A stretch of 64,000 nt of DNA from Rhodocyclaceae bacterium (GCA_016791115.1 JAEUNL010000016.1:36878-100877); one strand, 5' to 3'. Shown: positions 48,344-62,548, counted from the stretch's first letter. Program-made: numbers and translations. Notes: generated by a model not told the origin, from the letters alone.

Positions 48344-49534
48344 ATGCCGAACGCGCTGTTGCGCCTGCCGCGCACCGTCTGGTTGCTCGGGCTCGTCAGC
48401 CTGCTGAACGATTCGGCGTCCGAACTGCTCTATCCGCTGATTCCGCTGTATCTTGCGTCGGTGCTGATGGCCGGGCCGAAGGCGCTCGGCATCATCGAAG
48501 GCATCGCCGAAATGACCGCCAGCCTGCTCAAGCTGTTCTCCGGCGTACTGACCGACCGCACGCGCAGCGCGAAACCGTGGGTCGTCGGCGGCTACGGACT
48601 GGCGGCGCTCGCGCGGCCGCTGTTCGCGTTCGCGTCGAGCTGGCCGCTGGTATTGGCTTTGCGCTTTGCCGACCGGGTGGGCAAGGGGCTGCGCAGCTCG
48701 CCACGCGATGCACTGCTCGCCCGCTCGATCGAGCCTGGGCAGCGCGGCCTTGCTTTCGGCCTGCACCGCGCGATGGACAACGCCGGGGCGGTGATCGGCC
48801 CGCTGCTCGCGGCAGGCCTGCTGGCGGCCGGCGTCGGTGTTCGCGACATCTTCCTCTGGGCGGCGCTGCCCGGCACGCTGGCCGTCGCACTGGCGCTCGC
48901 CGTGCGCGAACAAGCCACCCCGGCGGCGGCAACGCGACCTGCCTTCGATTGGCGGCTGACCGGCTTCACGCCCGCATTCCGCCGTTATCTGCTGGCGCTC
49001 GCGCTTTTCACCCTGGGCAACGCCTCGAACATGTTCCTGCTGCTGCGGGCGCGCGAAGCCGGCCTGCCCGATGCCCAGGTGCCGCTGCTCTGGGCGCTGG
49101 TTTCGGCGGTGGCCATGCTGCTGTCCACGCCGCTTTCGGCGCTCTCCGATCGCGTCGGCCGGCAACGGCTGATCGTCGGCGGGTGGGCAGTCTACGGACT
49201 GTTCTATCTGGCGCTGGGCCATGTCCGCTCGCCCTGGGCGCTGTGGCCCCTGTTCGCGGTGTACGGCATCTTCCTCGCCGCCACCGAGGGCGCGGAAAAG
49301 GCGCTGGTGGCGGATCTCGCGCCGGCCCCGTTGTTCGGCACGGCTTATGGATGGTTCAACCTGGCTACCGGCATCATGCTGCTGCCGGCCTCGCTGGCAT
49401 TCGGCGTGTTGTGGCAGTCGTTCGGCCCCGGCACGGCGTTTGCCTTTTCCGCCGGCTGCGCGCTGGGTGCGGCGCTGCTGTTGCGCTTCTGGGTCTTTCC
49501 GGGTTCGCGCCGGGAGGCCGGCGCGGCTTTGTAA
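48344..49534 (+). CDS. MFS transporter
   Basis: The 396-aa ORF has 12 predicted TM helices and an MFS signature (LTDRTRSAKPWVV / DRVGRQR). Confidence 0.85.
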   Translation: MPNALLRLPRTVWLLGLVSLLNDSASELLYPLIPLYLASVLMAGPKALGIIEGIAEMTASLLKLFSGVLTDRTRSAKPWVVGGYGLAALARPLFAFASSWPLVLALRFADRVGKGLRSSPRDALLARSIEPGQRGLAFGLHRAMDNAGAVIGPLLAAGLLAAGVGVRDIFLWAALPGTLAVALALAVREQATPAAATRPAFDWRLTGFTPAFRRYLLALALFTLGNASNMFLLLRAREAGLPDAQVPLLWALVSAVAMLLSTPLSALSDRVGRQRLIVGGWAVYGLFYLALGHVRSPWALWPLFAVYGIFLAATEGAEKALVADLAPAPLFGTAYGWFNLATGIMLLPASLAFGVLWQSFGPGTAFAFSAGCALGAALLLRFWVFPGSRREAGAAL

Positions 49535-49563
49535 GGTTTCGCACCGCGACCGGGTCTTGATTC

Positions 49564-50082
49564 GTGACCATGATCTTCAACCTCGCCCAGCGCCGTTTCG
49601 AACAGACGGTTCGCGCTTACAGCGCGGATCTCTACCGCTACGCCTACTGGCTGTGCCGTGACCGCTTCCGCGCCGAAGATCTGGTACAGGAGACGTTCAC
49701 CCGCGCCTGGAACAGCTGGGAAAGCCTGAAGGACGTCGAGGCCGTGAAGTCGTGGCTGATCACCATCCTGCGGCGCGAACATGCGCGGCTTTACGAGCGC
49801 AAGCAGTTCGATTACGTAGACACCGAACTCGAGGATCTGCAGATCGCCGCCGACCACGACGCGGTCGAGTTGTACCAGCTCGAGAATCTGCTCGAGGAAT
49901 TGCCGCTCACGCTGCGCGAACCCTTCGTGATGCAGGCCCTGGGGGGCTATTCCTGTGCGGAGATCGCCGAGCAGCTCGACACGACGGAAGGCGCCGTGAT
50001 GACGCGGCTCACCCGCGCACGGCAGGCGCTGCGCGGCGCGCTGTCCGGCGGCAGCGCAAAGGCCGGCAAAGGGAAATCATGA
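49564..50082 (+). CDS. ECF-type RNA polymerase sigma factor
   Basis: The 172-aa ORF has region 2 (DLVQETFTRAW) and region 4 (YSCAEIAEQLDTTEGAVMTRLTRARQAL). The track ORF starts at a GTG at 49564, and an ATG at 49570 is an alternative. Confidence 0.88.
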   Translation: MTMIFNLAQRRFEQTVRAYSADLYRYAYWLCRDRFRAEDLVQETFTRAWNSWESLKDVEAVKSWLITILRREHARLYERKQFDYVDTELEDLQIAADHDAVELYQLENLLEELPLTLREPFVMQALGGYSCAEIAEQLDTTEGAVMTRLTRARQALRGALSGGSAKAGKGKS

Positions 50083-50843
50083 GCGCCGACAATCGCACCC
50101 ATGCTGCCTCGCAGGAGATGAACTGCCTCGCCTTCCGGCGCGCCAAGCTGGCCGATCCGAACCGGCTGAGTGCGGCGGCGCGCGCACACGAACAGGGATG
50201 TCCGGGCTGCCTGGCATTCGCACGCCGGATCGACGCCAACGAAAAGCGCATCGTGCGCGCGCTGACCGTGCCGGTGCCCGAAGGGCTGGCCGATCGCGTG
50301 ATCCTCGGCGCCACCGGCCGCAGGCCAAGCTCGCCGTATCGGCTTTGGGCACTGGCCGCGACGGTGGTGCTCAGCACCGGCATCGGCCTCGCGTGGTTCG
50401 CCCGGGCGCCAGTCGAACCGCAGTACAACTTCGCCGCCTCGGCGATCGAACACGTGAAGCACGAACCCGAGTCATTCACGACGGTCAAGGATGCCGACCC
50501 GGCACGTTTCGCCACGATCCTGACCGATTTCGGCGCCGACCTTCGCGCGCCGATCGGCACCGTGCGCTACATCAAGCTGTGCCCGGTTCCCGAAGGCACG
50601 GGCTGGCATATCGTGTTCGAGACCGAGGAAGGGCTGGTCACGCTGATGTTGATCCCCGGGCATCAGCCGATCGGTCGCAACCTGTTCGAGGAACGCGACG
50701 GCATGAGTGCGCTGGTGCGCGCCGCCGGCCTGGGCTACTACGTGATCGTCGCGGAGAGCCGGGCGAAGGTGGAAAGCACCGACCGGCTGCTCAAGCAGCG
50801 CATCAACTGGACGGCGGCGCGACCGCCGAGCCGGTTCGGCTAG
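50079..50843 (+). CDS. anti-sigma factor with an HxxxCxxC zinc motif (DUF3379-like)
   Basis: The ATG at 50079 overlaps the sigma-factor stop in an ATGA. The product has H-EQG-C-PG-C at residues 37-44, one TM segment (LWALAATVVLSTGIGLAWF) and a periplasmic domain of about 160 aa. Confidence 0.7.
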   Translation: MSADNRTHAASQEMNCLAFRRAKLADPNRLSAAARAHEQGCPGCLAFARRIDANEKRIVRALTVPVPEGLADRVILGATGRRPSSPYRLWALAATVVLSTGIGLAWFARAPVEPQYNFAASAIEHVKHEPESFTTVKDADPARFATILTDFGADLRAPIGTVRYIKLCPVPEGTGWHIVFETEEGLVTLMLIPGHQPIGRNLFEERDGMSALVRAAGLGYYVIVAESRAKVESTDRLLKQRINWTAARPPSRFG

Positions 50844-50883
50844 CCCGGCGTCTTGCCGCGCGTGCGGCCGCACCCATTCACAT

Positions 50884-52851
50884 TCAGAATCGCCTGTTGA
50901 GTGTCACCCTGAAGCTGCGCCCCGTCTGCGGGATCACGCCATTCGTCAGCGCACCGCTATCGGTGGCGAGCGGGTCGGCATAACGGCGATCGCACAGGTT
51001 GTAGACCGACGCGCTGGCCTCCCAACCGTCGCTGCGCAGCGGTCGCAGCAGCGTCAGGTTCACCAGTCCGATGCTCGACACCCGGCCCAGATAGGAATGC
51101 TGCGCCGAGGTCCATTGCCCTTCGAGCCCCGCGCGCAGTCCGAACCACGGCAAGGGCCGCGAAAGGTTGACCTTCGCCAGCCAGCGCGGCGAGTTGGTCA
51201 TCGCTCCGCGCTCGTCGTTCCGCACGCGGTTGTAGCCGATGCTGGTGCGCAGGTGCGTGCCGGTGTCGGCAACGTGGTCGATCTCGAACTCGATCCCGCG
51301 TCCGCGAACTTCTCCCGTATTCGCGTAGTAGGAGCCGCCCGAATCGGCATCCTCGATCAACTTCACCACGCGATGGACGTGAAAACCGAACAGCGACGCC
51401 ACGCCGCGGGTGCGCGGCGCGAAGTAGTGCTCGAGGGTGATCTCGGCGTTCTCCACGCGCTCGGCATCGAGCGACACGCCTTCCGGGCTCCACAAACGTT
51501 CATACGGTGATGCATTGCGCGCGCCGCGTCCATACAGAAACTTCCACGCGGTATTGCTGCCCGGTTTGTAGATTAATCCCAGCCGCGGATTGATTTCGGT
51601 GTCCCCCGGAGACGTCCGATCCAGCCTGAGGCCGCCGGTAAGCGTGACCCGCTGGGTGAGGCCGTAGTCCGCCTGCGCGTAGGCACTGGTGCGCGAGGCC
51701 TTGTCGCCGAAGTCGTAATACACCTGTCGGTCGGGCTTGGTCATATCGTGCTGCGAGAGGCGGAAGTCGCGCTGATGCTCGACCCCTGACACCACGCGCA
51801 GATCGGTGCCGAGCAGGGTTTCGAGCCGCAGCTCGGTGCCCGACCAGTCAGCCCGGGTCACGTCATGCTCGGTCTGGCGCCCCGATTCGAGATCGAGCGG
51901 CCAGTGCCCAAGGTAGTCGTAGTGGCCGTAGTAAAGGCGAGCCGTCAGCCGATTCGACTCCGACAGGTCGCGGACATAGCGGAGGTTGGCGAACGCCTCG
52001 GCGTCGCGCGCGTACATGTTCGGCTGCCCGAACATGTATGGCGCCAGATACGGGGCCGGGTCGCCTTTCACGCGCGAGCCGAAACCGGCGGTCAATGCGA
52101 AGTCGCCATGCTCGAGTTTCGCAAAAGCCCGGCGCGAATAATCGTAATCCCCATCGCGGACCTTGCCGCCGGGAAAACCCCTTGCCCGGTCCGGCTTGAA
52201 GCGCAGGTCTTCTCCCTCGACGTCGAGATAGGAGGCCGACAACAGCAGGCTCGCGCCGTTTTCGAAGCGCTTCCCGAAGCGTGCGTTGGCGCCCGCGCGA
52301 CCGTTGCTGCCGCCATCGAGACCCACGACGAGGCCACTGGATCCGCCCGCCGATCGCGTGACGATGTTGATCACGCCGAACAGGGCATTGCCGCCGAACT
52401 CGGCCGAGCCGGGGCCGCGAATGTACTCGACGCGCTCGATCAGGCCGACATCGAGCGGGAATTCGGAGCCGATCAGGCCGCCGTCATACACCGGGTCGTT
52501 GATGCGCATGCCGTCGATCTGCAGCGCGACGCCGGCGTTGTAGTCGCCGGCACGCGAGTAGCCGCGCAGCGTCAGGTAGTCGTAGTTGCGGTCGTTGTAG
52601 ATATGCACGCCGCGCACGCTGCGCAGCAGATCGCCGAGCGTGCGGTAGCCGAAGCTGCGAATGTCGTCCGCCGTGATGACCGTGACCGAGGCCGGCGAAT
52701 CCACCTGACGCAGGTAGTGGCGCGACGCCGCGTAGACCGGCGTCGTGGCGAGAGACTCGAGGTCGGGCAGATTGCCCGCCCGGACAATCGCCGGCAGCGT
52801 GCTGGCCGCCAACGCGGCGGACAGGCAAACCGGACCGACTCGCCGGTTCAT
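50884..52851 (-). CDS. TonB-dependent receptor
   Basis: The 655-aa ORF has a signal peptide, a plug domain ([27 protein letters not shown]...[25 protein letters not shown]) and a C-terminal Phe. Its start overlaps the kinase stop. Confidence 0.88.
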
Positions 52852-55625
52852 GCGTGCACACCTGCCATTGCCCCGTCGAGATAACCAGTGAGCGCTGTTG
52901 ACGCCTCCTCGTAAGCCGCGGAGAGTTCGCCGGCCATCCGGGCTCCATCGCCGATCGTACGCTGCTCGCGCGCGGCCCGTTCCAGCGTTGCCGCCATCTG
53001 CGACAGGCGGAGCGCCCCGACTGCGGCGCTCGACGACTTGATCTTGTGCGCAATCGCGGAGATCGTGGAACTGTCTCCGGAACTCATCGCAGGGCCGAGG
53101 CGGTCGAGCATCTTCTCCGTCTCCTCGCGAAACAGCCCGACGATGCGACGGCCTAGCGCACCGCCGTCGCTACCGACACCGGGCACCTCCGCAAGGATCG
53201 CCGGATCGAGGACCGCCGCGCCGCTGGGCACATCCATCAGCGAGTCCAGGCCGGCCGGCTCGATCGGGCGCAGCGCCAGCCCGGCCTGTCGCTCCAGGGC
53301 GGTCCGCAACTGCGCCTTGGTAAAGGGTTTGGCCAGGTAATCGGTCATCCCGGCTTCGATGCAACGTTCTCGATCGCCCTGCATCGCGTTGGCAGTCAGC
53401 GCGATGATCGGGATCGGATGCTCCGCTCCGCGCGCCTGCTCTGCCTCGCGGATGCGCGTGGTCGCGGTGAAGCCGTCCATTTCGGGCATCTGGCAGTCCA
53501 TCAGGACCACGTCGAACGCCCGGGTGCGCAGGGCCTCGACGGCCTGCGCCCCGTTCTGCACCCAAACATGGTCGCAACCGAGGTCGCCGAGAATCGCGCC
53601 CGCGATGCTCGCGTTGACCGGATGATCCTCGGCAAGCAAGACGGAAAGGCCGAGTCCGTTGCCGCCACGCGTGGCCGGCGCCGGCTCCTCGCTGGCCTGG
53701 TGGAGACGGCCGGCCAGCGCGGATTCGATCACGGCACACAGTTCGGCCGACAGAACGGGCTTGGACAGGAACTGCAGATCGGAAACGGCGTGCCAGCTAC
53801 TTGCTTCCACACGCGTCGCGATCGGCACCATCACGATCAGATGCGCCGGATCGATGAGGCCTTCGGCCCGGATCGATTCGACGGTCGGCAATCCCGAACT
53901 GTTGGCGAGTCGTGCCGATACGAAGCACAGGTCGAACTTGCACCCTTCCGCACGCGCCACGCGCAATGCGTCGAGCGCCGTCTGCCCCGATGGCGATGCC
54001 TGGACGGCGAAACCCCGGCGCTCGAGGCGCCTTGCCATCGCGGTGCGCGCCGTCGTGTTCGAGTCGATCACCATGGCGCGAATGCCGGCAAGCTGTGCCG
54101 GCCCGGCTTCGCACTCGGTTTCATGGCCGATCCTTTGCGAACCGATCGTGAACCAGAACGTCGAGCCGGCACCTTCACGACTTTCGAACCCGATTTCCCC
54201 CCCCATCAGTTCGGACAACTGCTTGGCGATCATCAGGCCCAGGCCGGTTCCGCCGTATTTTCGGGTGGTCGAACTGTCTGCCTGCGAGAAGGCCTTGAAC
54301 AGCCGGTCGCGGGCCGATTCGCCGACGCCGACACCGGTATCGCGCACCTCGAAGCGCAGACAATCGCCACGCTCCGATGCCATCGCAGCCAGGCGCACTT
54401 CGATCTCGCCCGCGGAGGTGAACTTGATCGCATTGGAAATCAGGTTCGAGAGGATCTGCTTGACGCGGTAGGGATCCCCCATGACGGATCGCGGCACGTT
54501 ATCACTCACCGAAACGATCAGTTCGAGCCCCTTGGCCTGGGCCCGCTCGGCGAACAGCACCGCGACTTCCTCGGCAGACAGCAGCGGACGGAACTCGACG
54601 TTCTCCAACTCCAGCTTGCCGGCCTCGATCTTCGAGAAATCGAGCAGATCGTTGATGATGTAGAGCAGCGACTCGGCCGACACCCGCAGCGTCTTGGCGA
54701 AGCGTCGCTGCTTGTCCGACAGTTCCGTATCGAGCAGCAGGTCGGTCATGCCGAGCACGCCGTTCATCGGCGTGCGAATCTCGTGGCTCATGTTGGCCAG
54801 GAACTGCGTCTTCGCGCGGTTCGCCGCCTCGGCCTGCTCCTTCGCGGCGAGCAGTTCCGCCGTGCGGTTCAGCACCTGCATTTCGAGTTGCTCGCGATGC
54901 TCGCGCAGTTCGCGGTCGCGCGACTCGATCTGCGACATCATGTCGTTGAAGCCAACGACCAGATCGCCGACCTCGTCGTTCGAACGATGCGTGACACGGC
55001 GGTCATAGCGGCGGTCGCGGGCCACGCTGCGCGAGGCCTCTGCCAGTTCGAGGATCGGGGTCGCGACTTCGCGCTGGAGCTTGAGCGAGAACAGATAGGC
55101 GAGACAGAACGCCAGCAGCGTTCCCGCCCCCGAGAACGCGAACTGCTTGAGCAGATCGGTCCACATCGCCGACAAGTCGACGCGCAGGGTCAGGTAGCCG
55201 AGCGTCTCGCGCTCTTCCATGATCGGGTGACTCACGGTCACCATGGTCGAGAAACCGATGTCACCCGGTTGGAGATGGTCGCGCACCGGCTTGTCCATGC
55301 GAGGGTCGGCCACGGCTCGATCGGGATAGGCTGCAAAGAGGGTTCCATTCGGCAGCGTTATCCATGCCGCCATGATGTCAGCCCGGTTGCGCAGCGACGC
55401 CAGCGTTTTCTCGGCCGCCGCGGCATCGCCGAAGCTGATCGCCGAGGCGCTGTTGGCGCTGATGATCTCGGCGGCCCCTTCGAGCTGCGAAAGCGTCTGC
55501 ATGCGCTGCGAATTGAGCTGGCTGACCGATGCGACCAGGTAGCTGACGGTCAGGCCGACCAGCGTCGCGATGACCACGACCGCGGTCAGCTTCTTCTTGA
55601 GCGAGGTCTTGTACACGGGATTCAT
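52848..55625 (-). CDS. hybrid sensor histidine kinase: CHASE8-like periplasmic domain, HAMP, HisKA, HATPase, degenerate REC, REC and Hpt
   Basis: The 925-aa ORF has two TM segments flanking a periplasmic domain of about 130 aa ([24 protein letters not shown]). It has the H-box [10 protein letters not shown], a receiver ([13 protein letters not shown]...LAKP) and a C-terminal Hpt ([13 protein letters not shown]). Confidence 0.9.
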
Positions 55626-56191
55626 CAGTTCCTCCCCCGCACGCTACCGGCGTTGCGCGCAAGCTTCAGCAACTGCGAACTCGCCTTGAGGCTCGATCGC
55701 TGCAGCGTCGCGGCATTCACTTCGAACTGGATGCGCTCGTCTGCGCTGACCAGGCCGATCGCGCCGCCGACATCGATGAACCCGTCGATGTCGCTGACGG
55801 TCAGGATCGCACCCTGGGCGCTGCGCAGCAGGGGCGCGACGTGTCGCTGCTCGGAATCGCTGATGTAGAGGATGTGGCAGCCGCGAAAATCGTCGCTGCC
55901 CGCCGCGATACGACGAACCACGACCGGGCGGCCGTGTACCTGCTTGCCGTCGAATGCATCGATCGCCGGCCCGAAGGGGTCGCGCCCGGCGACGCACAGC
56001 CACACTGGCGCTTCCTTGCTGTAGAAGGCCTCGGCCGGCCATTCGACATACTTGGCGAAGTTGAACAGAAAACCGGCCTTGACCTGCGCCTCGCTGAGGG
56101 CCTGTGCCTGCAGCCCCGGCGCGCCGCACGACAGCGCCAGCAGCATGCCGACCGCAATGCGCGGCCAGATTGGGAGTCGAAGTAGCTTCAT
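55625..56191 (-). CDS. YfiR family (DUF4154) periplasmic protein
   Basis: Trimmed to [20 protein letters not shown] (cat at 56189-56191). The 188-aa product has a signal peptide and a YfiR-like core ([16 protein letters not shown]...[10 protein letters not shown]...ILTVSD). Confidence 0.75.
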
Positions 56192-56202
56192 CGCAGCGTG
56201 GC

Positions 56203-58263
56203 TCAGAACGTAAGCTTCGCCTTGACATACCAGGCGCGTTCGACTTCCAGCGTCGGCGTCGGAATGTAGTCGCCCACCCATTCTGGATGGCGGTGGTCGA
56301 GGAGGTTCTGTCCGACCAGCGACAGTTCCAAGGCCGGCGCGACACGCCAGGCCAGCCGCAGATCGAGCTCGGTGTAGGCAGGAATTCCGTTTCCAACGAG
56401 CTTGCCCACATGTCGCAGCCAGCCATCCAACTCCCACTCGCGCATCGGATTGTAGGAGACACGGAGCGAACCGACGCGTCGCGGCGTCTTCCCCGCATAG
56501 TCTGCTGCGCTGATCCCGTCCGCCCCGTCGATCACGCGCTCGCGCGAATAGGCGTAGGTCGCAAGCAGGCGAAGGTCTTTGAGCGGATGCCAGTCAAGGG
56601 CGACTTCCACGCCATGGGTGCGTCCTTTCAGCCGGTTGACCGTCTCGACGCTCGTCAGGAGATACGGAACGACGCCCGCCGGGGTGGGAATGAAGTTCAT
56701 TTCCGTACCGAGCAGGCGACCGCTTCTCAAATCGCGATAATGGCTGGCATAAGCAGCAAGGTCGACCGACAGCGACGGCGCAACCTGCTCCCGGTAGCCG
56801 AATTCGATTGTGGTGACCTTCTCGGAGTCCTTGAGGCGCGCCGAAGACATGGCGCGAAGTACGTTATACAGAGGCACCTGCTGAGAGGGTGCTACGACGT
56901 TTAGCAGGATATTCCCGTCTTCCTCGGCCTGCGAAGGCGTGCGCACAGCGCGCGACAATGCACCCCAGACCGTTCGCGTGTCGGCCGGTGTCCAGGCAAA
57001 ACGCACGTTCGGCTGAATTTCCCAGTCGGTGTAATCGTTGCGCTCGATCTTTGCCCCGCCGATCAGCCGCAGGCGATCCGGTATGACGGACCATTCGTCA
57101 TGGACGAAGGCACTGAGAAGTGACGTCGAACGTCCATCGCGGTCGAATACAAAATTCGCCCTAAGGGGGCGTAGCTGGTCACGGGTGTGGCGGAATCCTG
57201 CACCCCACATGAAGTCGTGTCGCCCCAGGTGCCAACGCTGCTGGATATCGATGTCGGCGGTATCCCTGTTGTCCGAAAGTGCCCAGGGTACTTCGATACG
57301 ACTGGTCTCGACATAGACCTGCAGCCCCAGCTCGGAGCCGTTGCCGAGGACGGTATCAACGCGCCCGAGCACGTTGCTTCCAGTGTGCTTTGCAGTGACC
57401 TGATCCGCTGTCAGCAAACCGGTTCCCAACGTAGCGGCCGAGGGGTCCGGACGGTCGTAACGGTCTCCAGCCAGCACCCGATACGCTTCGCCCGTGATGG
57501 TGGCCCGCGTCCCCCGATCGAACCCGGCGTCAATCCGGAATCCTGCCCGCGCGGAATGGCTGGGATCGACTTCGAGCGTGTCGTCGGAGGCATCGCGGCG
57601 CATCCCCTTGGCCCACACGCGATAATGGCTTTGATCGTTGATCTCACCGCCCCAGCGTGCTGTCCCGGTCGGCCGCTCCTCACTGCCCGCCGTCAGCGTT
57701 GCCTGCCCGCCCTGCGTCGCACGTGCCCGTTTGGTGATGATGTTGATGACACCGTTGACCGCATTGGCACCCCACATCGCGGCACCTGGGCCTCGTATCA
57801 CTTCGATGCGGTCGATGTCTTCGAGCAGCGTATCTTCCTGCTCCCAGATCACCCCCGAGAAGAGAGGAGAGTAGATCGACCGGCCATCCATCAGAACGAG
57901 CAGCTTGTTGGCGAATCGGCCGTTGAACCCGCGTGCCGTGACTGCCCACCGCGCATTGCCCATGCGGGCCACCTGAACCCCCGGCACCATTCGCAAGGCG
58001 TCGGGAATGCTGGTCGCACCCGAGCGATGGAGCTCGTCGCCCGTGATCACGAACACCGCAGCCGCAGTCTCTGAAAGACGCTGCGTCTTGCGCGAAACCG
58101 TGGATACGTCGGTATTCAGCAGATCCTCGAGGCTCAAGCCGGCAACGTCCTGCGCGGCTGCCGACGCCGACCACGCAGCCAGGATCAGGCTGCCCAGGAT
58201 GATTCGCGCAGGCGTCGCGGGTAGGCAAGGACACTTGACCGGGGAGTGTTTCGCACGTTTCAT
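56203..58263 (-). CDS. TonB-dependent receptor
   Basis: The 686-aa ORF has a plug domain (VFVITGDELHRSGATSIPDALRMVPGV...IEVIRGPGAAMWGANAVNGVINIITK) and a terminal Phe. Confidence 0.9.
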   Translation of the reverse strand: MKRAKHSPVKCPCLPATPARIILGSLILAAWSASAAAQDVAGLSLEDLLNTDVSTVSRKTQRLSETAAAVFVITGDELHRSGATSIPDALRMVPGVQVARMGNARWAVTARGFNGRFANKLLVLMDGRSIYSPLFSGVIWEQEDTLLEDIDRIEVIRGPGAAMWGANAVNGVINIITKRARATQGGQATLTAGSEERPTGTARWGGEINDQSHYRVWAKGMRRDASDDTLEVDPSHSARAGFRIDAGFDRGTRATITGEAYRVLAGDRYDRPDPSAATLGTGLLTADQVTAKHTGSNVLGRVDTVLGNGSELGLQVYVETSRIEVPWALSDNRDTADIDIQQRWHLGRHDFMWGAGFRHTRDQLRPLRANFVFDRDGRSTSLLSAFVHDEWSVIPDRLRLIGGAKIERNDYTDWEIQPNVRFAWTPADTRTVWGALSRAVRTPSQAEEDGNILLNVVAPSQQVPLYNVLRAMSSARLKDSEKVTTIEFGYREQVAPSLSVDLAAYASHYRDLRSGRLLGTEMNFIPTPAGVVPYLLTSVETVNRLKGRTHGVEVALDWHPLKDLRLLATYAYSRERVIDGADGISAADYAGKTPRRVGSLRVSYNPMREWELDGWLRHVGKLVGNGIPAYTELDLRLAWRVAPALELSLVGQNLLDHRHPEWVGDYIPTPTLEVERAWYVKAKLTF

Positions 58264-58312
58264 GATCGTTGAAGTGAAAATGGGTTGTTGGTTGGCGGAC
58301 GTAGTTCCGGGA

Positions 58313-60382
58313 TCAGAACCGGACCTTCAGCTTGGCGTAGGCGCCACGGCGGACCTGGAGCGGCTCGGAAGTCAGGTATTCGGCCACGTACTCCGGGTGG
58401 CGTGCATCGAGCAGGTTCTGCCCGACGACGGACAGCTCCACTTGCGGACCGAGCTTCCACGCGTAGCGCAGATCGAGTTCGGTGTATCGGGGAACATCGA
58501 GCGGGCGCAACGTGCTCGCACTGCGCAGCCAGAAATCGGCGCGCTGCAAGCGAGTAACGTCCCACGACAAACGCAGGCTGCCCTGATGTCTCGGTGCGCT
58601 GCCGGCATTCTGTGTGGCAAGTGAGTCGCCCACCGGATTGCCTGGCCGGTCGACGTCGATGTCGAGATACGAGTAGCTGGCCTGCACCCGCAGGTCGGGA
58701 CGCACACGCCAATCGGCCGCGATTTCGAGGCCGCGTGTCGTGCCGCGCGTCTCGGCGTCGTGGAGCACCGGAACGGTAACGCCGACCGGGACGACGCCGG
58801 CCGGCGTCATTGCAAGTATCGGGGACGGATTGCCCATGCGCGATGCCACCAGATCGCGATAGCGCCCGAAGAAAGCCGCCACATCGACTGAAAGCGCGTC
58901 GCCAAGCTGGCCGCGCCAGCCGAAGTCGAGTTGCGACAGCTTTTCGGCAGCCAGGCGCTTATCCGAGGGTTCGAGGGGAAGCAGCGTGGGGATCGGCGTT
59001 TCGATGCCGCCTAGGCCGGGCGCAGCGATGTAATTGCGCATCGTTGCATCGCGTTCGCCGCGCGAGGGCGTCCGCACGGCGCGCGAGGCCGCGAGCCAGA
59101 ACGTGTCATGCGGGTTCGGGGTGAAGCTCAGGCGGGTATCCGGTTGAAAGTGCAATCCCGAATAGTCGTCGTGCTCCAGGCGGGCGCCGAACGTGAGGTT
59201 CCACCGCTGGGGGGCGAGCGCAATTTCGTCGCGAACGAAGACCGAGCTCGATCTCGAGTCGCGTGACCGCTGCGCAAACGCGATCGTCTTCCCCGCCCTG
59301 ATGTCGTCGGTGCTGAACCGGCTCGTGAGTCCCCAAACCGTGTCGTGGACGCGACCGATGTGCCGCCGCTGCTGGAACTCGAGATCCAGTGTGTCGCGTC
59401 TTTCCCGGACGGCACCATCGACATCGAACGACGAACGCGCATAGCTCGCCTGGATGGCGCTTTCCACGCCGGAACCGGAGATCCATTCGAAGCGCGCCAG
59501 CAGATTCGCGCCGCGCGATTCTTCGTCGAGCGGCAAGTCCTCCAGATAGGGCGGCGTCATCGCCGGCGAAACGCGTGGAACGACCCAGCGGTCGCCGAAA
59601 CGATACTCGAACGCATCGGCCAGGACAGTCAGCTTGTCGGTGCCGAAGCTCTTGTCGAAGCGAAGCCCGACGCGACCATTGTTCCATTCGTCGCGCCCGC
59701 GACGGCCGTCGAGCGTTTCCGAAGATTCGACGGCAAACCCTTTGGCATACAGACGCAAATGGGCATCGTCAGCGAAGGCGACGCCATGGCGCAACGACGC
59801 GGCGGCGCTTTCGGTGGTTCCCCCGGCGGCAACGACCTGGGTGCCCTGGGTTGAACGTGCCCGTTTGGTGATGATATTGATCACGCCGTTGACCGCATTG
59901 GCGCCCCACATGGCGGCACCCGGCCCACGGATCACCTCGATGCGGTCGACATCCTCCAGCAGCGTGTCTTGCGCTTCCCAGAGCGTGCCCGAGAACAGGG
60001 GCGAATAGACCGACCTGCCATCGAGCATGACGAGGAGCTTGTTGGCAAACCTGCCGTTGAAGCCGCGTATCGTGACTGCCCACATGGCATTCGAAATGCG
60101 GGCGACGTTGACGCCCGGCACCAGCCGAAGCGCCTCGGGCACGCTGGTGACTCCGGAACGCTCGATATCTTCGGCCGTCACCACGTAAACCGCTGCCGGC
60201 GTGTCGGCAAGCGCCTGGGCCCTGCGCGCGACGCTGCTGACTTCGACTTTCATCAAGTCCTCGAGCGACGGCACGTCGTTGTCCGGGTTCTCTGCGCGGG
60301 ACGGTTGCGCAGCAAGGAGCATGGCCCCGACGCCTGCAGCGACGAGACTGCGATTCCAGACAGATCCAGGTTTGCTGATCAT
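58313..60382 (-). CDS. TonB-dependent receptor, paralogue of 56203..58263
   Basis: Trimmed to the ATG at 60380-60382 (MISKPGSVWNRSLVAAGVGAMLLAAQPSRA). Its plug domain is nearly identical to that of the neighbouring receptor. The longest ORF runs to 60472. Confidence 0.86.
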   Translation of the reverse strand: MISKPGSVWNRSLVAAGVGAMLLAAQPSRAENPDNDVPSLEDLMKVEVSSVARRAQALADTPAAVYVVTAEDIERSGVTSVPEALRLVPGVNVARISNAMWAVTIRGFNGRFANKLLVMLDGRSVYSPLFSGTLWEAQDTLLEDVDRIEVIRGPGAAMWGANAVNGVINIITKRARSTQGTQVVAAGGTTESAAASLRHGVAFADDAHLRLYAKGFAVESSETLDGRRGRDEWNNGRVGLRFDKSFGTDKLTVLADAFEYRFGDRWVVPRVSPAMTPPYLEDLPLDEESRGANLLARFEWISGSGVESAIQASYARSSFDVDGAVRERRDTLDLEFQQRRHIGRVHDTVWGLTSRFSTDDIRAGKTIAFAQRSRDSRSSSVFVRDEIALAPQRWNLTFGARLEHDDYSGLHFQPDTRLSFTPNPHDTFWLAASRAVRTPSRGERDATMRNYIAAPGLGGIETPIPTLLPLEPSDKRLAAEKLSQLDFGWRGQLGDALSVDVAAFFGRYRDLVASRMGNPSPILAMTPAGVVPVGVTVPVLHDAETRGTTRGLEIAADWRVRPDLRVQASYSYLDIDVDRPGNPVGDSLATQNAGSAPRHQGSLRLSWDVTRLQRADFWLRSASTLRPLDVPRYTELDLRYAWKLGPQVELSVVGQNLLDARHPEYVAEYLTSEPLQVRRGAYAKLKVRF

Positions 60383-60688
60383 CGATCTACGGAGGAGACG
60401 GCGCGGGGTGTGACGAAAATCACGCAGGCAACTGAACAGGCTGGGCAGCACGGCAGCACGGCATCGGTCCATTTCCCTTTGTTTGCTGACACTTGGTCGA
60501 TTCCACGCGCGTTCTCCCGGCTTCTTTTCTTGTCAGCCTGATCTACGGCAACGCCCAGCGCCACTTGAGGGCATTCCGTCACGCCTGCGCGGAGAAACAC
60601 CAGCGGCCGTACCGGGTATTCGCCACGGTAGAATGCGCGGTATCGATCAAAACCATGCGCCGACCGCGTACGCCGACAGGAATTCCCC

Positions 60689-62548
<1,860 letters not shown>

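Follow-up and report, generated by a model that had tools for sequence, protein, structure and literature searches.

A candidate adaptor-based relay from TonB-dependent receptors to a CHASE8 hybrid kinase in a Rhodocyclaceae bacterium

Can an outer-membrane receptor signal to an inner-membrane kinase through a soluble periplasmic protein? The question is raised by five genes at positions 50884-60382 of a 64,000-nucleotide stretch of DNA, here called the window, from a Rhodocyclaceae bacterium (GCA_016791115.1, JAEUNL010000016.1:36878-100877; a 4-Mb assembly in 73 contigs, 92% complete). They encode three TonB-dependent receptors (TBDR1, TBDR2, and TBDR3), a YfiR-like periplasmic protein, and a hybrid histidine kinase with a CHASE8 sensor domain (Table 1). 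Two routes are known by which TonB-dependent receptors signal: through a FecA-type domain that acts on an anti-sigma factor, or by import of a compound that is then sensed in the periplasm. A first-pass annotation, made from the sequence of the window, had proposed a route distinct from the FecA-type one, in which ligand- or TonB-dependent relief of YfiR repression feeds a phosphorelay. The reading that we favor, and to which we give about an even chance, is that the locus encodes a contact-based relay running from a receptor to the YfiR-like adaptor, from the adaptor to the CHASE8 kinase, and from there into a phosphorelay that includes an Hpt domain.

The comparative evidence comes from 80 genome loci that a YfiR-like profile identified in Pseudomonadota, Acidobacteriota, Nitrospirota, Verrucomicrobiota, Myxococcota, Thermodesulfobacteriota, Planctomycetota, Bacteroidota, and Deferribacterota. 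Directly upstream of the YfiR-like gene lies a receptor gene in 71 of the 78 evaluable loci, and directly downstream a gene for a CHASE8/HAMP sensor in 77 of 80; 68 of 80 loci, spread over about ten phyla, have all three genes in the order receptor, YfiR-like protein, and CHASE8-HAMP sensor. The first-pass annotation had mentioned such neighborhoods in other proteobacteria and had suggested neighborhood statistics for DUF4154, the YfiR family, as a check; these counts bear the statement out. Likewise, all 10 evaluable DUF4154 genes in 12 related genomes lie just downstream of a receptor gene. Across the loci, one adaptor is accompanied by 1-3 receptor paralogues. The outputs vary: the sensor is a kinase with receiver and Hpt domains in 26 of the 80 loci, a kinase with a receiver in 22, a kinase alone in 20, and a fused GGDEF(-EAL) protein in 2, and the following gene encodes a receiver in 16 loci and a REC-GGDEF(-EAL) protein in 17. 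Since the outputs vary while the sensing parts stay the same, the constant unit is the receptor, the YfiR-like protein, and the CHASE8-HAMP sensor.

This trio is already catalogued and occurs in many genomes, so that the window adds a further instance and is by itself no discovery. NCBIfam curates it as linked families, namely, NF053590 (TOL_0244, receptor), NF053591 (TOL_0243, YfiR-like protein), and NF053592 ("sensor histidine kinase, YfiR-like protein-associated"); the TOL_0244 and TOL_0243 names derive from locus tags and have no function attached. The YfiR-like protein scores 141.2 bits on NF053591, above the equivalog cutoff of 125. Receptors and kinase N terminus match their models over the full length, albeit just below the cutoffs for TBDR1 and TBDR2 (594.2 and 596.9 bits against an equivalog cutoff of 645) and for the sensor region of the kinase, a near miss at 169.7 bits against 194 on the NF053592 domain model (profile positions 1-222 of 223); the kinase does have the genomic context of that family, since the gene directly upstream is YfiR-like. 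NF053590 does not extend to TBDR3 (109 bits) or to a fourth receptor of this genome (167 bits), both of which belong to another clade. In literature searches for YfiR-like, DUF4154, or CHASE8 proteins together with a receptor or kinase, no paper on the trio was found. The earlier statement that no mechanistic description is known therefore stands for the trio itself and has to be qualified in two respects, as the analogous Pah pathway has been dissected (PMC10570129) and NCBIfam curates the trio.

The five-gene layout is a lineage-specific expansion of this three-gene core. In the syntenic relative L004, the order is glnS, then receptor, YfiR-like protein, and kinase, then the genes for a DUF3379 protein and a sigma factor of the extracytoplasmic function (ECF) type, with a single receptor and no counterpart of TBDR1 or TBDR3. 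"Candidatus Methylophosphatis haderslevensis," a Sterolibacteriaceae relative from the same genus with genome G002 and locus L009, has the identical five-gene order at ~65% identity. Accordingly, the five genes and their order, put forward at first as the module, are confirmed, while the conserved unit comprises three genes, with one receptor in L004.

The five open reading frames (ORFs) all lie on the minus strand, and all are intact. Their tight packing was described correctly from the start: the gaps are 49 nt between TBDR1 and TBDR2 and 11 nt between TBDR2 and the YfiR-like gene, the stop of the YfiR-like gene shares 1 nt, at 55625, with the start of the kinase gene, and the kinase stop and the TBDR3 start overlap by 4 nt (ATGA, 52848-52851). 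In activated-sludge RNA, contigs of four runs extend over the five genes, with 99-100% identity, and bridge all four gene junctions (Table 1), and this coverage fits a single transcript. The contigs over TBDR1 end at 60531 and 60559, inside the TBDR1-glnS intergenic region, and depth is absent over 60327-60727 in two of the four runs. A promoter scan of 50500-60800 found no sigma-70 consensus, and terminator-like sites in this interval are no more frequent than in shuffled sequences. Might TBDR1 and TBDR3 nevertheless be unrelated passengers, brought together by accident in a module that has decayed in this genome? The close relative L004 lacks both, the first receiver of the kinase is degenerate, and a receptor/YfiR-like pair 16 kb away lost its sensor or never had one. 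We leave this idea a very small chance, given that every ORF is intact and covered by transcript contigs, that "Ca. Methylophosphatis haderslevensis" retains the order of all five genes at ~65% identity, that TBDR3 falls in a YfiR-linked receptor clade and shows translational coupling to the kinase, and that the pseudo-receiver architecture is common to the 926-aa orthologues.

The best-known relative of the adaptor is YfiR of the YfiBNR system of Pseudomonas aeruginosa and Escherichia coli (TpbB/DgcN; HmsCDE in Yersinia), in which periplasmic YfiR represses the CHASE8-type diguanylate cyclase YfiN and YfiB sequesters YfiR. The Pfam comparison suggested in the first-pass annotation returned both of the families that it predicted, DUF4154/YfiR at 155 bits and CHASE8 at 55 bits, and the 188-aa protein proved to be a YfiR homologue by Pfam, by sequence profile, and by the fold of its model. 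It matches PF13689 over profile positions 2-143 of 143 (155 bits versus 24.9; E = 1.7e-45), and the profile of its family matches YfiR of the Protein Data Bank at E = 2.6e-16. Its AlphaFold2 model (predicted local distance difference test [pLDDT] score of 88.1) matches 4yn7, 4yna, 4zhu, and 5eb1 with E values of ~1e-8, target template modeling (TM) scores of 0.74-0.78, and 25-28% identity. On the canonical YfiR equivalog, NF053586, it scores 46.9 bits, below the cutoff of 85. The positions that are invariant or nearly so in the family are K38, N44, W51, P52, I145, F156, N159, L174, and L175, and the most conserved ones fall on helix 1, strand 7, and helix 4 (Table 1). In YfiR, the surface formed by these elements binds YfiB and is thought to bind YfiN (PMC4655355). 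The hydrophobic pocket residues F151, V180, and L181 of YfiR correspond to I145, L174, and L175, and Cys66 and Cys105 align with YfiR Cys71 and Cys110. The alignments thus suggest that the adaptor keeps the partner-binding surface of YfiR as its most conserved part.

The kinase, by Pfam matches and inspection of key residues, has the order transmembrane segment, CHASE8, transmembrane segment, HAMP, HisKA, HATPase_c, pseudo-receiver, receiver, and Hpt. The CHASE8 sensor predicted by the first-pass annotation matches PF17152 at 55 bits and is flanked by hydrophobic segments at residues ~12-37 and ~162-181. All domains of the HisKA-HATPase-REC-REC-Hpt series, as first described, were matched as well, and the description can be refined in that the first of the two receivers is a pseudo-receiver: Ser570 takes the position of the acceptor aspartate, where the sequence reads DLCFVS, and DS replaces the acidic pair. 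The residues of the phosphorelay are otherwise present, H281 in HisKA (SHEIRTP), D710 in the second receiver (VLMDCQMP), and H860 in Hpt (HKIKSS). A 925/926-aa architecture with two receiver-domain matches is retained in the orthologues of loci L004, L005, and L009. A phmmer search of the six-frame ORFs of the 92%-complete assembly found the kinase as the sole CHASE8 protein. No response regulator gene was found near the cluster or in the 64-kb window; a REC-GGDEF-EAL gene elsewhere in the genome (G000:C43:117481-119568) is only a candidate for the cognate regulator.

All three receptors match the Plug and TonB_dep_Rec_b-barrel families of Pfam (84.8 and 111 bits for TBDR1, 78.8 and 103 for TBDR2, 70 and 105 for TBDR3), and each ends in a C-terminal phenylalanine. 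The AlphaFold2 model of TBDR2 (pLDDT, 86.6; predicted TM score, 0.86) places the plug within a β-barrel with a long run of strands. A tree of 82 receptors from the surveyed loci and this contig, with four unlinked receptors of this genome added, contains two dedicated YfiR-linked clades, A (55 rows) and B (26 rows), each with a support of 100. All four receptors on this contig fall in these clades: TBDR1 and TBDR2 in clade A, TBDR1 beside its "Ca. Methylophosphatis" orthologue, and TBDR3 and the fourth receptor in clade B, whose remaining members adjoin YfiR-like genes except for two paralogues further upstream in L050. TBDR1 is an old tandem paralogue of TBDR2. The two share 44% identity overall, 75-85% in the plug and ~25% in loop regions; a conserved plug with diverged loops fits one periplasmic partner and different ligands. 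Recent gene conversion between them was considered and rejected: the plugs share 74-78% of their nucleotides, but identity at third positions is 0.55-0.57 in a gene rich in G and C at third codon positions (GC3). Their plug similarity is attributable to purifying selection.

Receptors of both clades carry a conserved peptide with the consensus DLxxLSLE(D/E)LLNxEVxSVSK at the mature N terminus, between the signal peptide and the plug, where it occupies the topological position of the FecA-type signaling domain. It reads NDVPSLEDLMKVEVSSVARRAQ in TBDR1 and DVAGLSLEDLLNTDVSTVSRKTQ in TBDR2 and is degenerate in TBDR3; the strand that follows resembles a TonB box and may be one, judging from the receptor sequences. 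We built a profile of 23 positions from 76 receptors of the cross-phylum loci and used it to score all 76 Plug-domain proteins in a sample drawn from eight relatives and this genome. In these 9 genomes, the 16 YfiR-linked receptors score 11.5-40.6 bits and the 60 unlinked ones 4.3 bits or less; with a strict regular expression, the difference between linked and unlinked receptors has a Fisher p of 2e-13. Simple regular expressions were too rigid across phyla and were replaced by the profile. In the model of TBDR2, the peptide has low pLDDT and a short helical turn, suggesting that it is probably flexible, like a periplasmic tail. The TBDR2 peptide is a candidate docking element for the adaptor.

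Comparison with YfiBNR brings out both likenesses and differences. Sequence (E = 2.6e-16) and fold (TM score, 0.75-0.78) both mark the YfiR-family protein as homologous, its gene adjoins that of an inner-membrane CHASE8-HAMP sensor, a third component is present in the outer membrane, and the partner-binding surface and the equivalent of the Cys71/Cys110 pair are conserved. However, the outer-membrane partner is a TonB-dependent receptor, with 1-3 paralogues, rather than the OmpA-like lipoprotein YfiB, the genes are ordered receptor, YfiR-like protein, and sensor, the equivalent of the Cys145-Cys152 disulfide is absent and the score is below the NF053586 cutoff (46.9 versus 85), and the neighbors are receptors and a hybrid kinase with an Hpt domain in place of the YfiB lipoprotein and the CHASE8-GGDEF protein YfiN. 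The first-pass annotation stressed that a phosphorelay replaces the GGDEF output; the kinase is indeed in that place, but since the phosphorelay often ends in cyclic di-GMP (c-di-GMP) enzymes elsewhere, the output is less unlike that of YfiBNR than first thought. YfiBNR responds to envelope and redox stress (PMC4655355), and the retained Cys66/Cys105 pair could mean that the YfiR-like protein and CHASE8 sense the redox or stress state of the periplasm here too, with the receptor genes as cotranscribed or regulated cargo and not as the input; two-component systems often adjoin the transporters that they control. Such an envelope-state sensor is quite improbable in our view. For simple cargo, it would be unusual to keep the receptor gene first in an order that holds in about ten phyla and to have 1-3 receptor paralogues for each adaptor. 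Both the receptor clades and the N-terminal peptide are specific to the YfiR context, and the output is often a c-di-GMP enzyme, not a DNA-binding regulator.

A parallel in logic is the Pah system of Cycloclasticus sp. P1, which senses polycyclic aromatic hydrocarbons at the cell surface (Wang et al., iScience 2023, PMC10570129). It consists of PahS, a TonB-dependent receptor of 687 aa, PahP, a two-lobe periplasmic binding protein of 318 aa, the 771-aa kinase PahK, and the GacA-type regulator PahR, whose gene is unlinked (PMC10570129). PahP docks on PahS, takes over the ligand, detaches, and docks on PahK, a relay supported by coimmunoprecipitation, surface plasmon resonance, two-hybrid assays, and Förster resonance energy transfer (PMC10570129). 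The trio resembles it in the order of receptor, periplasmic protein, and membrane kinase, in a kinase of the BarA/GacS kind with receiver and Hpt domains, in a regulator encoded elsewhere, and in that the YfiR fold resembles one lobe of PF04392 proteins. It differs in the sensor, as Pah-type kinases carry sCache_4 or unassigned domains, not CHASE8. Homology was sought on both counts and rejected: in BLAST, the YfiR-like protein is not significantly similar to the genome's own PF04392 protein (E = 0.17), leaving a resemblance at the level of the fold only, and the alignment of CHASE8 with Pah-type sensors is limited to the second transmembrane segment and HAMP (E = 5e-6). Cassettes of the Pah architecture (receptor, PF04392 protein, and kinase with receiver and Hpt domains) were located in genomes of the order Methylococcales, with ORF sizes of 699, 323, and 787 in L162, and one lies in the present genome (Table 1). 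The N termini of Pah-type receptors are FFEELPVVLSASRLPQP-like or YGDEDYIYIATGRKQ-like; the receptor of the cassette in this genome reads FFEELPVVLSASRLPQP, unlike the LSLEDLL peptide, and six relatives have receptors with similar, FFEEL-type N termini. Which class of N-terminal peptide a receptor carries appears to follow the class of its adaptor.

The Pah precedent also bears on a simpler explanation, according to which the receptors would only import a small molecule that the YfiR-like protein, as a one-lobe binder, or CHASE8 then senses with no contact between receptor and adaptor, as in PfeA/PfeS-PfeR or TorT/TorS; the genes would be linked because their products handle the same compound. 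The receptors do look like complete transporters, with plug and barrel (TBDR2 model), the divergence of paralogue loops is typical of transporters with different substrates, and PahP itself binds the ligand (PMC10570129). Still, import followed by sensing is in our view the less likely account, as it leaves unexplained both the conserved peptide that marks YfiR-linked receptors and the fact that the protein-binding surface of YfiR is the most conserved part of the adaptor, and in the one analogue that has been tested the binding protein docks on the receptor (PMC10570129).

With respect to the FecA/FecR/FecI route, the cluster shares a TonB-dependent receptor as the proposed input and a candidate element N-terminal to the TonB box. 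By contrast, Pfam finds no STN domain, and only ~20 residues separate the signal peptide from the plug; the partner is a soluble YfiR-like protein instead of a membrane anti-sigma factor, and the output is a phosphorelay instead of an ECF sigma factor. A trans-envelope route distinct from FecA/FecR/FecI, as initially suggested, thus remains the best reading, as the operon encodes neither an STN domain nor a sigma/anti-sigma pair.

In the contact-based relay that we favor, the receptors would bind external ligands, TBDR1, TBDR2, and TBDR3 having diverged in their surface loops, and ligand loading would alter the exposure of the N-terminal peptide just before the TonB-box-like strand. The YfiR-like protein would shuttle or partition between this peptide and the CHASE8 domain of the kinase, either because it is sequestered, in the way YfiB holds YfiR, or after it takes over the ligand, in the way PahP does from PahS, and its partition would set kinase activity. 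Phosphate would then pass from H281 to D710, on to H860 in Hpt, and finally to a response regulator encoded elsewhere, which in other genomes may often be a REC-GGDEF-EAL protein. The anatomy of the genes, the homologies, the conservation of the trio, the peptide specific to these receptors, and expression in situ are shown; which proteins touch, which way regulation runs, what the ligand is, and which regulator is targeted are inferred. Relief of YfiR repression, the mechanism first suggested, could be at work, and a ligand handoff modeled on the Pah system would fit equally well.

Several findings weigh against this proposal. The peptide specificity test covers 9 genomes of one order only, and 2 of the 16 linked test sequences, those from G002, are also in the training set of the profile; instead of serving for docking, the peptide could be a clade-specific stretch that extends the TonB box and was passed on by descent. 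The disulfide that stabilizes YfiR, Cys145-Cys152, is absent from the adaptor, where Ile139 and Gly146 occupy these positions, and no cysteine is found at either one across the YfiR-like family. When the receptor clades A and B are mapped on the YfiR-like tree, the labels change 14 times, compared with 17.9 in shuffles; as this tree does not follow the receptor clades, there is no sign of pairwise codivergence of adaptors and receptors, and we rejected that idea. Differences also separate the Pah precedent from this cluster: PahP is a two-lobe PF04392 protein whereas the middle gene here encodes a one-lobe DUF4154 protein, and Pah-type receptors lack the LSLEDLL peptide (2.9 bits or less). Given this and the lack of significant similarity to PahP, the Pah system is an analogue that follows the same logic, not a demonstrated homologue. 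Finally, the RNA-run contigs carry no direction and the RNA libraries may contain DNA; one contig, 49500-51263, also spans the convergent 3' junction with the anti-sigma gene.

Does the locus form part of something larger? A second receptor/YfiR-like pair lies on the same contig, outside the window and 16 kb beyond the cluster; its receptor, the fourth one mentioned above (G000:C2:109203-111221), scores 167 bits on NF053590 and its adaptor 131.7 bits on NF053591. No CHASE8 sensor follows the pair at this locus: a convergent pyrF lies downstream, and 300 nt upstream the same strand carries a gene for a 4HB_MCP chemoreceptor. The genome totals are 16 Plug-domain proteins, two DUF4154 proteins, and one CHASE8 protein. 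In relatives, each extra receptor/YfiR-like pair is accompanied by its own CHASE8 sensor, so that the pair here is either an orphan input to the single CHASE8 kinase or a remnant. Loci in two other genomes have one adaptor per receptor clade and one CHASE8 kinase, a parallel to the two adaptors and one kinase of this genome: the order is receptor(B), YfiR, receptor(A), YfiR, and kinase in L018 (3813-11229) and receptor(A), receptor(B), YfiR, YfiR, and kinase in L068 (4621-12007). A broader proposal, which we advance tentatively and regard as rather doubtful, is that the trios form a general, phylum-spanning third mode of TonB-dependent signaling, in which a short linear peptide at the N terminus of the mature receptor becomes exposed when ligand binds and captures or releases a soluble YfiR-like adaptor that at other times controls the inner-membrane sensor, and that here they make a multi-input hub of four receptors from two clades and two adaptors within 24 kb that converge on one CHASE8 kinase.

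The trio resembles known kinds of systems, YfiBNR and Pah-type signaling. For a third route via a soluble adaptor, the Pah system, published in 2023, is the single experimental precedent (PMC10570129). The YfiR-type trio is far more widespread; this survey by itself recovered it from about ten phyla. Its output is often a c-di-GMP enzyme, and it may therefore link external compounds to decisions on biofilm and motility. Among groups that matter in the environment and are for the most part uncultured, such as Accumulibacter, Competibacter, Nitrospira, and Acidobacteriota, it is common; its cultured carriers include Zoogloea oryzae NBRC 102407, Methyloversatilis thermotolerans 3t, and Azospirillum sp. 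What is new here is a candidate docking element, in the form of a quantified N-terminal peptide, and the presence of several receptors and two adaptors with one kinase.

Table 1. Features of the receptor/YfiR-like/CHASE8 kinase cluster and of related loci (window positions unless another locus is named)
Feature	Position	Strand	Remarks
TBDR1, TonB-dependent receptor, 689 aa	58313-60382	-	Likely ATG start at 60382; longest ORF to 60472
TBDR1 mature N-terminal peptide	60215-60280	-	Profile scores and alignment
TBDR2, TonB-dependent receptor, 686 aa	56203-58263	-	Directly upstream of YfiR-like gene
TBDR2 mature N-terminal peptide, candidate docking peptide	58081-58149	-	Followed by TonB-box-like strand
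YfiR-like periplasmic protein, 188 aa	55625-56191	-	Signal peptide ending AQA
Conserved segment, helix 1			KAxFLxNFxKYVEWP
Conserved segment, strand 7			FEVN
Conserved segment, helix 4			SSQLLKLAR
Hybrid histidine kinase, 925 aa	52848-55625	-
CHASE8 periplasmic sensor domain, kinase aa 43-147	55185-55499	-	PF17152, 55 bits; gathering cutoff 27
Pseudo-receiver (first receiver of kinase)	53706-54083	-	Ser570 at acceptor Asp position
TBDR3, TonB-dependent receptor, 655 aa	50884-52851	-	Translationally coupled to kinase stop
TBDR3 degenerate form of peptide motif	52705-52776
RNA contig	51978-53504		Bridges kinase/TBDR3
RNA contigs	54999-55712 and 55339-55743		Bridge YfiR-like/kinase
RNA contigs	55819-56580 and 56171-56455		Bridge TBDR2/YfiR-like
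RNA contig	58099-58789		Bridges TBDR1/TBDR2
TBDR1-glnS intergenic, probable promoter region and 5' leader	60383-60688	.	TBDR1-covering RNA-run contigs end there
glnS	from 60689		Divergent from TBDR1
ECF sigma factor and DUF3379 anti-sigma pair	49564-50843	+	Convergent on cluster 3' end, outside operon
Second receptor (clade B) and YfiR-like pair	G000:C2:108590-111221; locus L003 8588-11222	-	Outside window
Pah-type cassette in this genome	G000:C23:33038-38061		Receptor, PF04392 protein (57 bits), sCache_4-HAMP-HisKA-HATPase-REC kinase

The genes that flank the cluster are housekeeping genes. The synteny with the ECF sigma/DUF3379 pair is kept in the Sterolibacteriaceae relatives L004 and L005 and not in other lineages. 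Horizontal acquisition of the five genes was considered and rejected, their GC content and GC3 (0.72-0.83) being close to those of the surroundings. Between 96 and 99% of sampled words of the stretch are present in many activated-sludge metagenomes. In one RNA run, X25, the summed contig depth reaches ~1548 over 54713-55113, the HisKA-coding part of the kinase gene, compared with 5-40 elsewhere, and this peak is accompanied by loose ends and odd joints; it most likely stems from conserved kinase sequences of other organisms in the metatranscriptome, not from local RNA.

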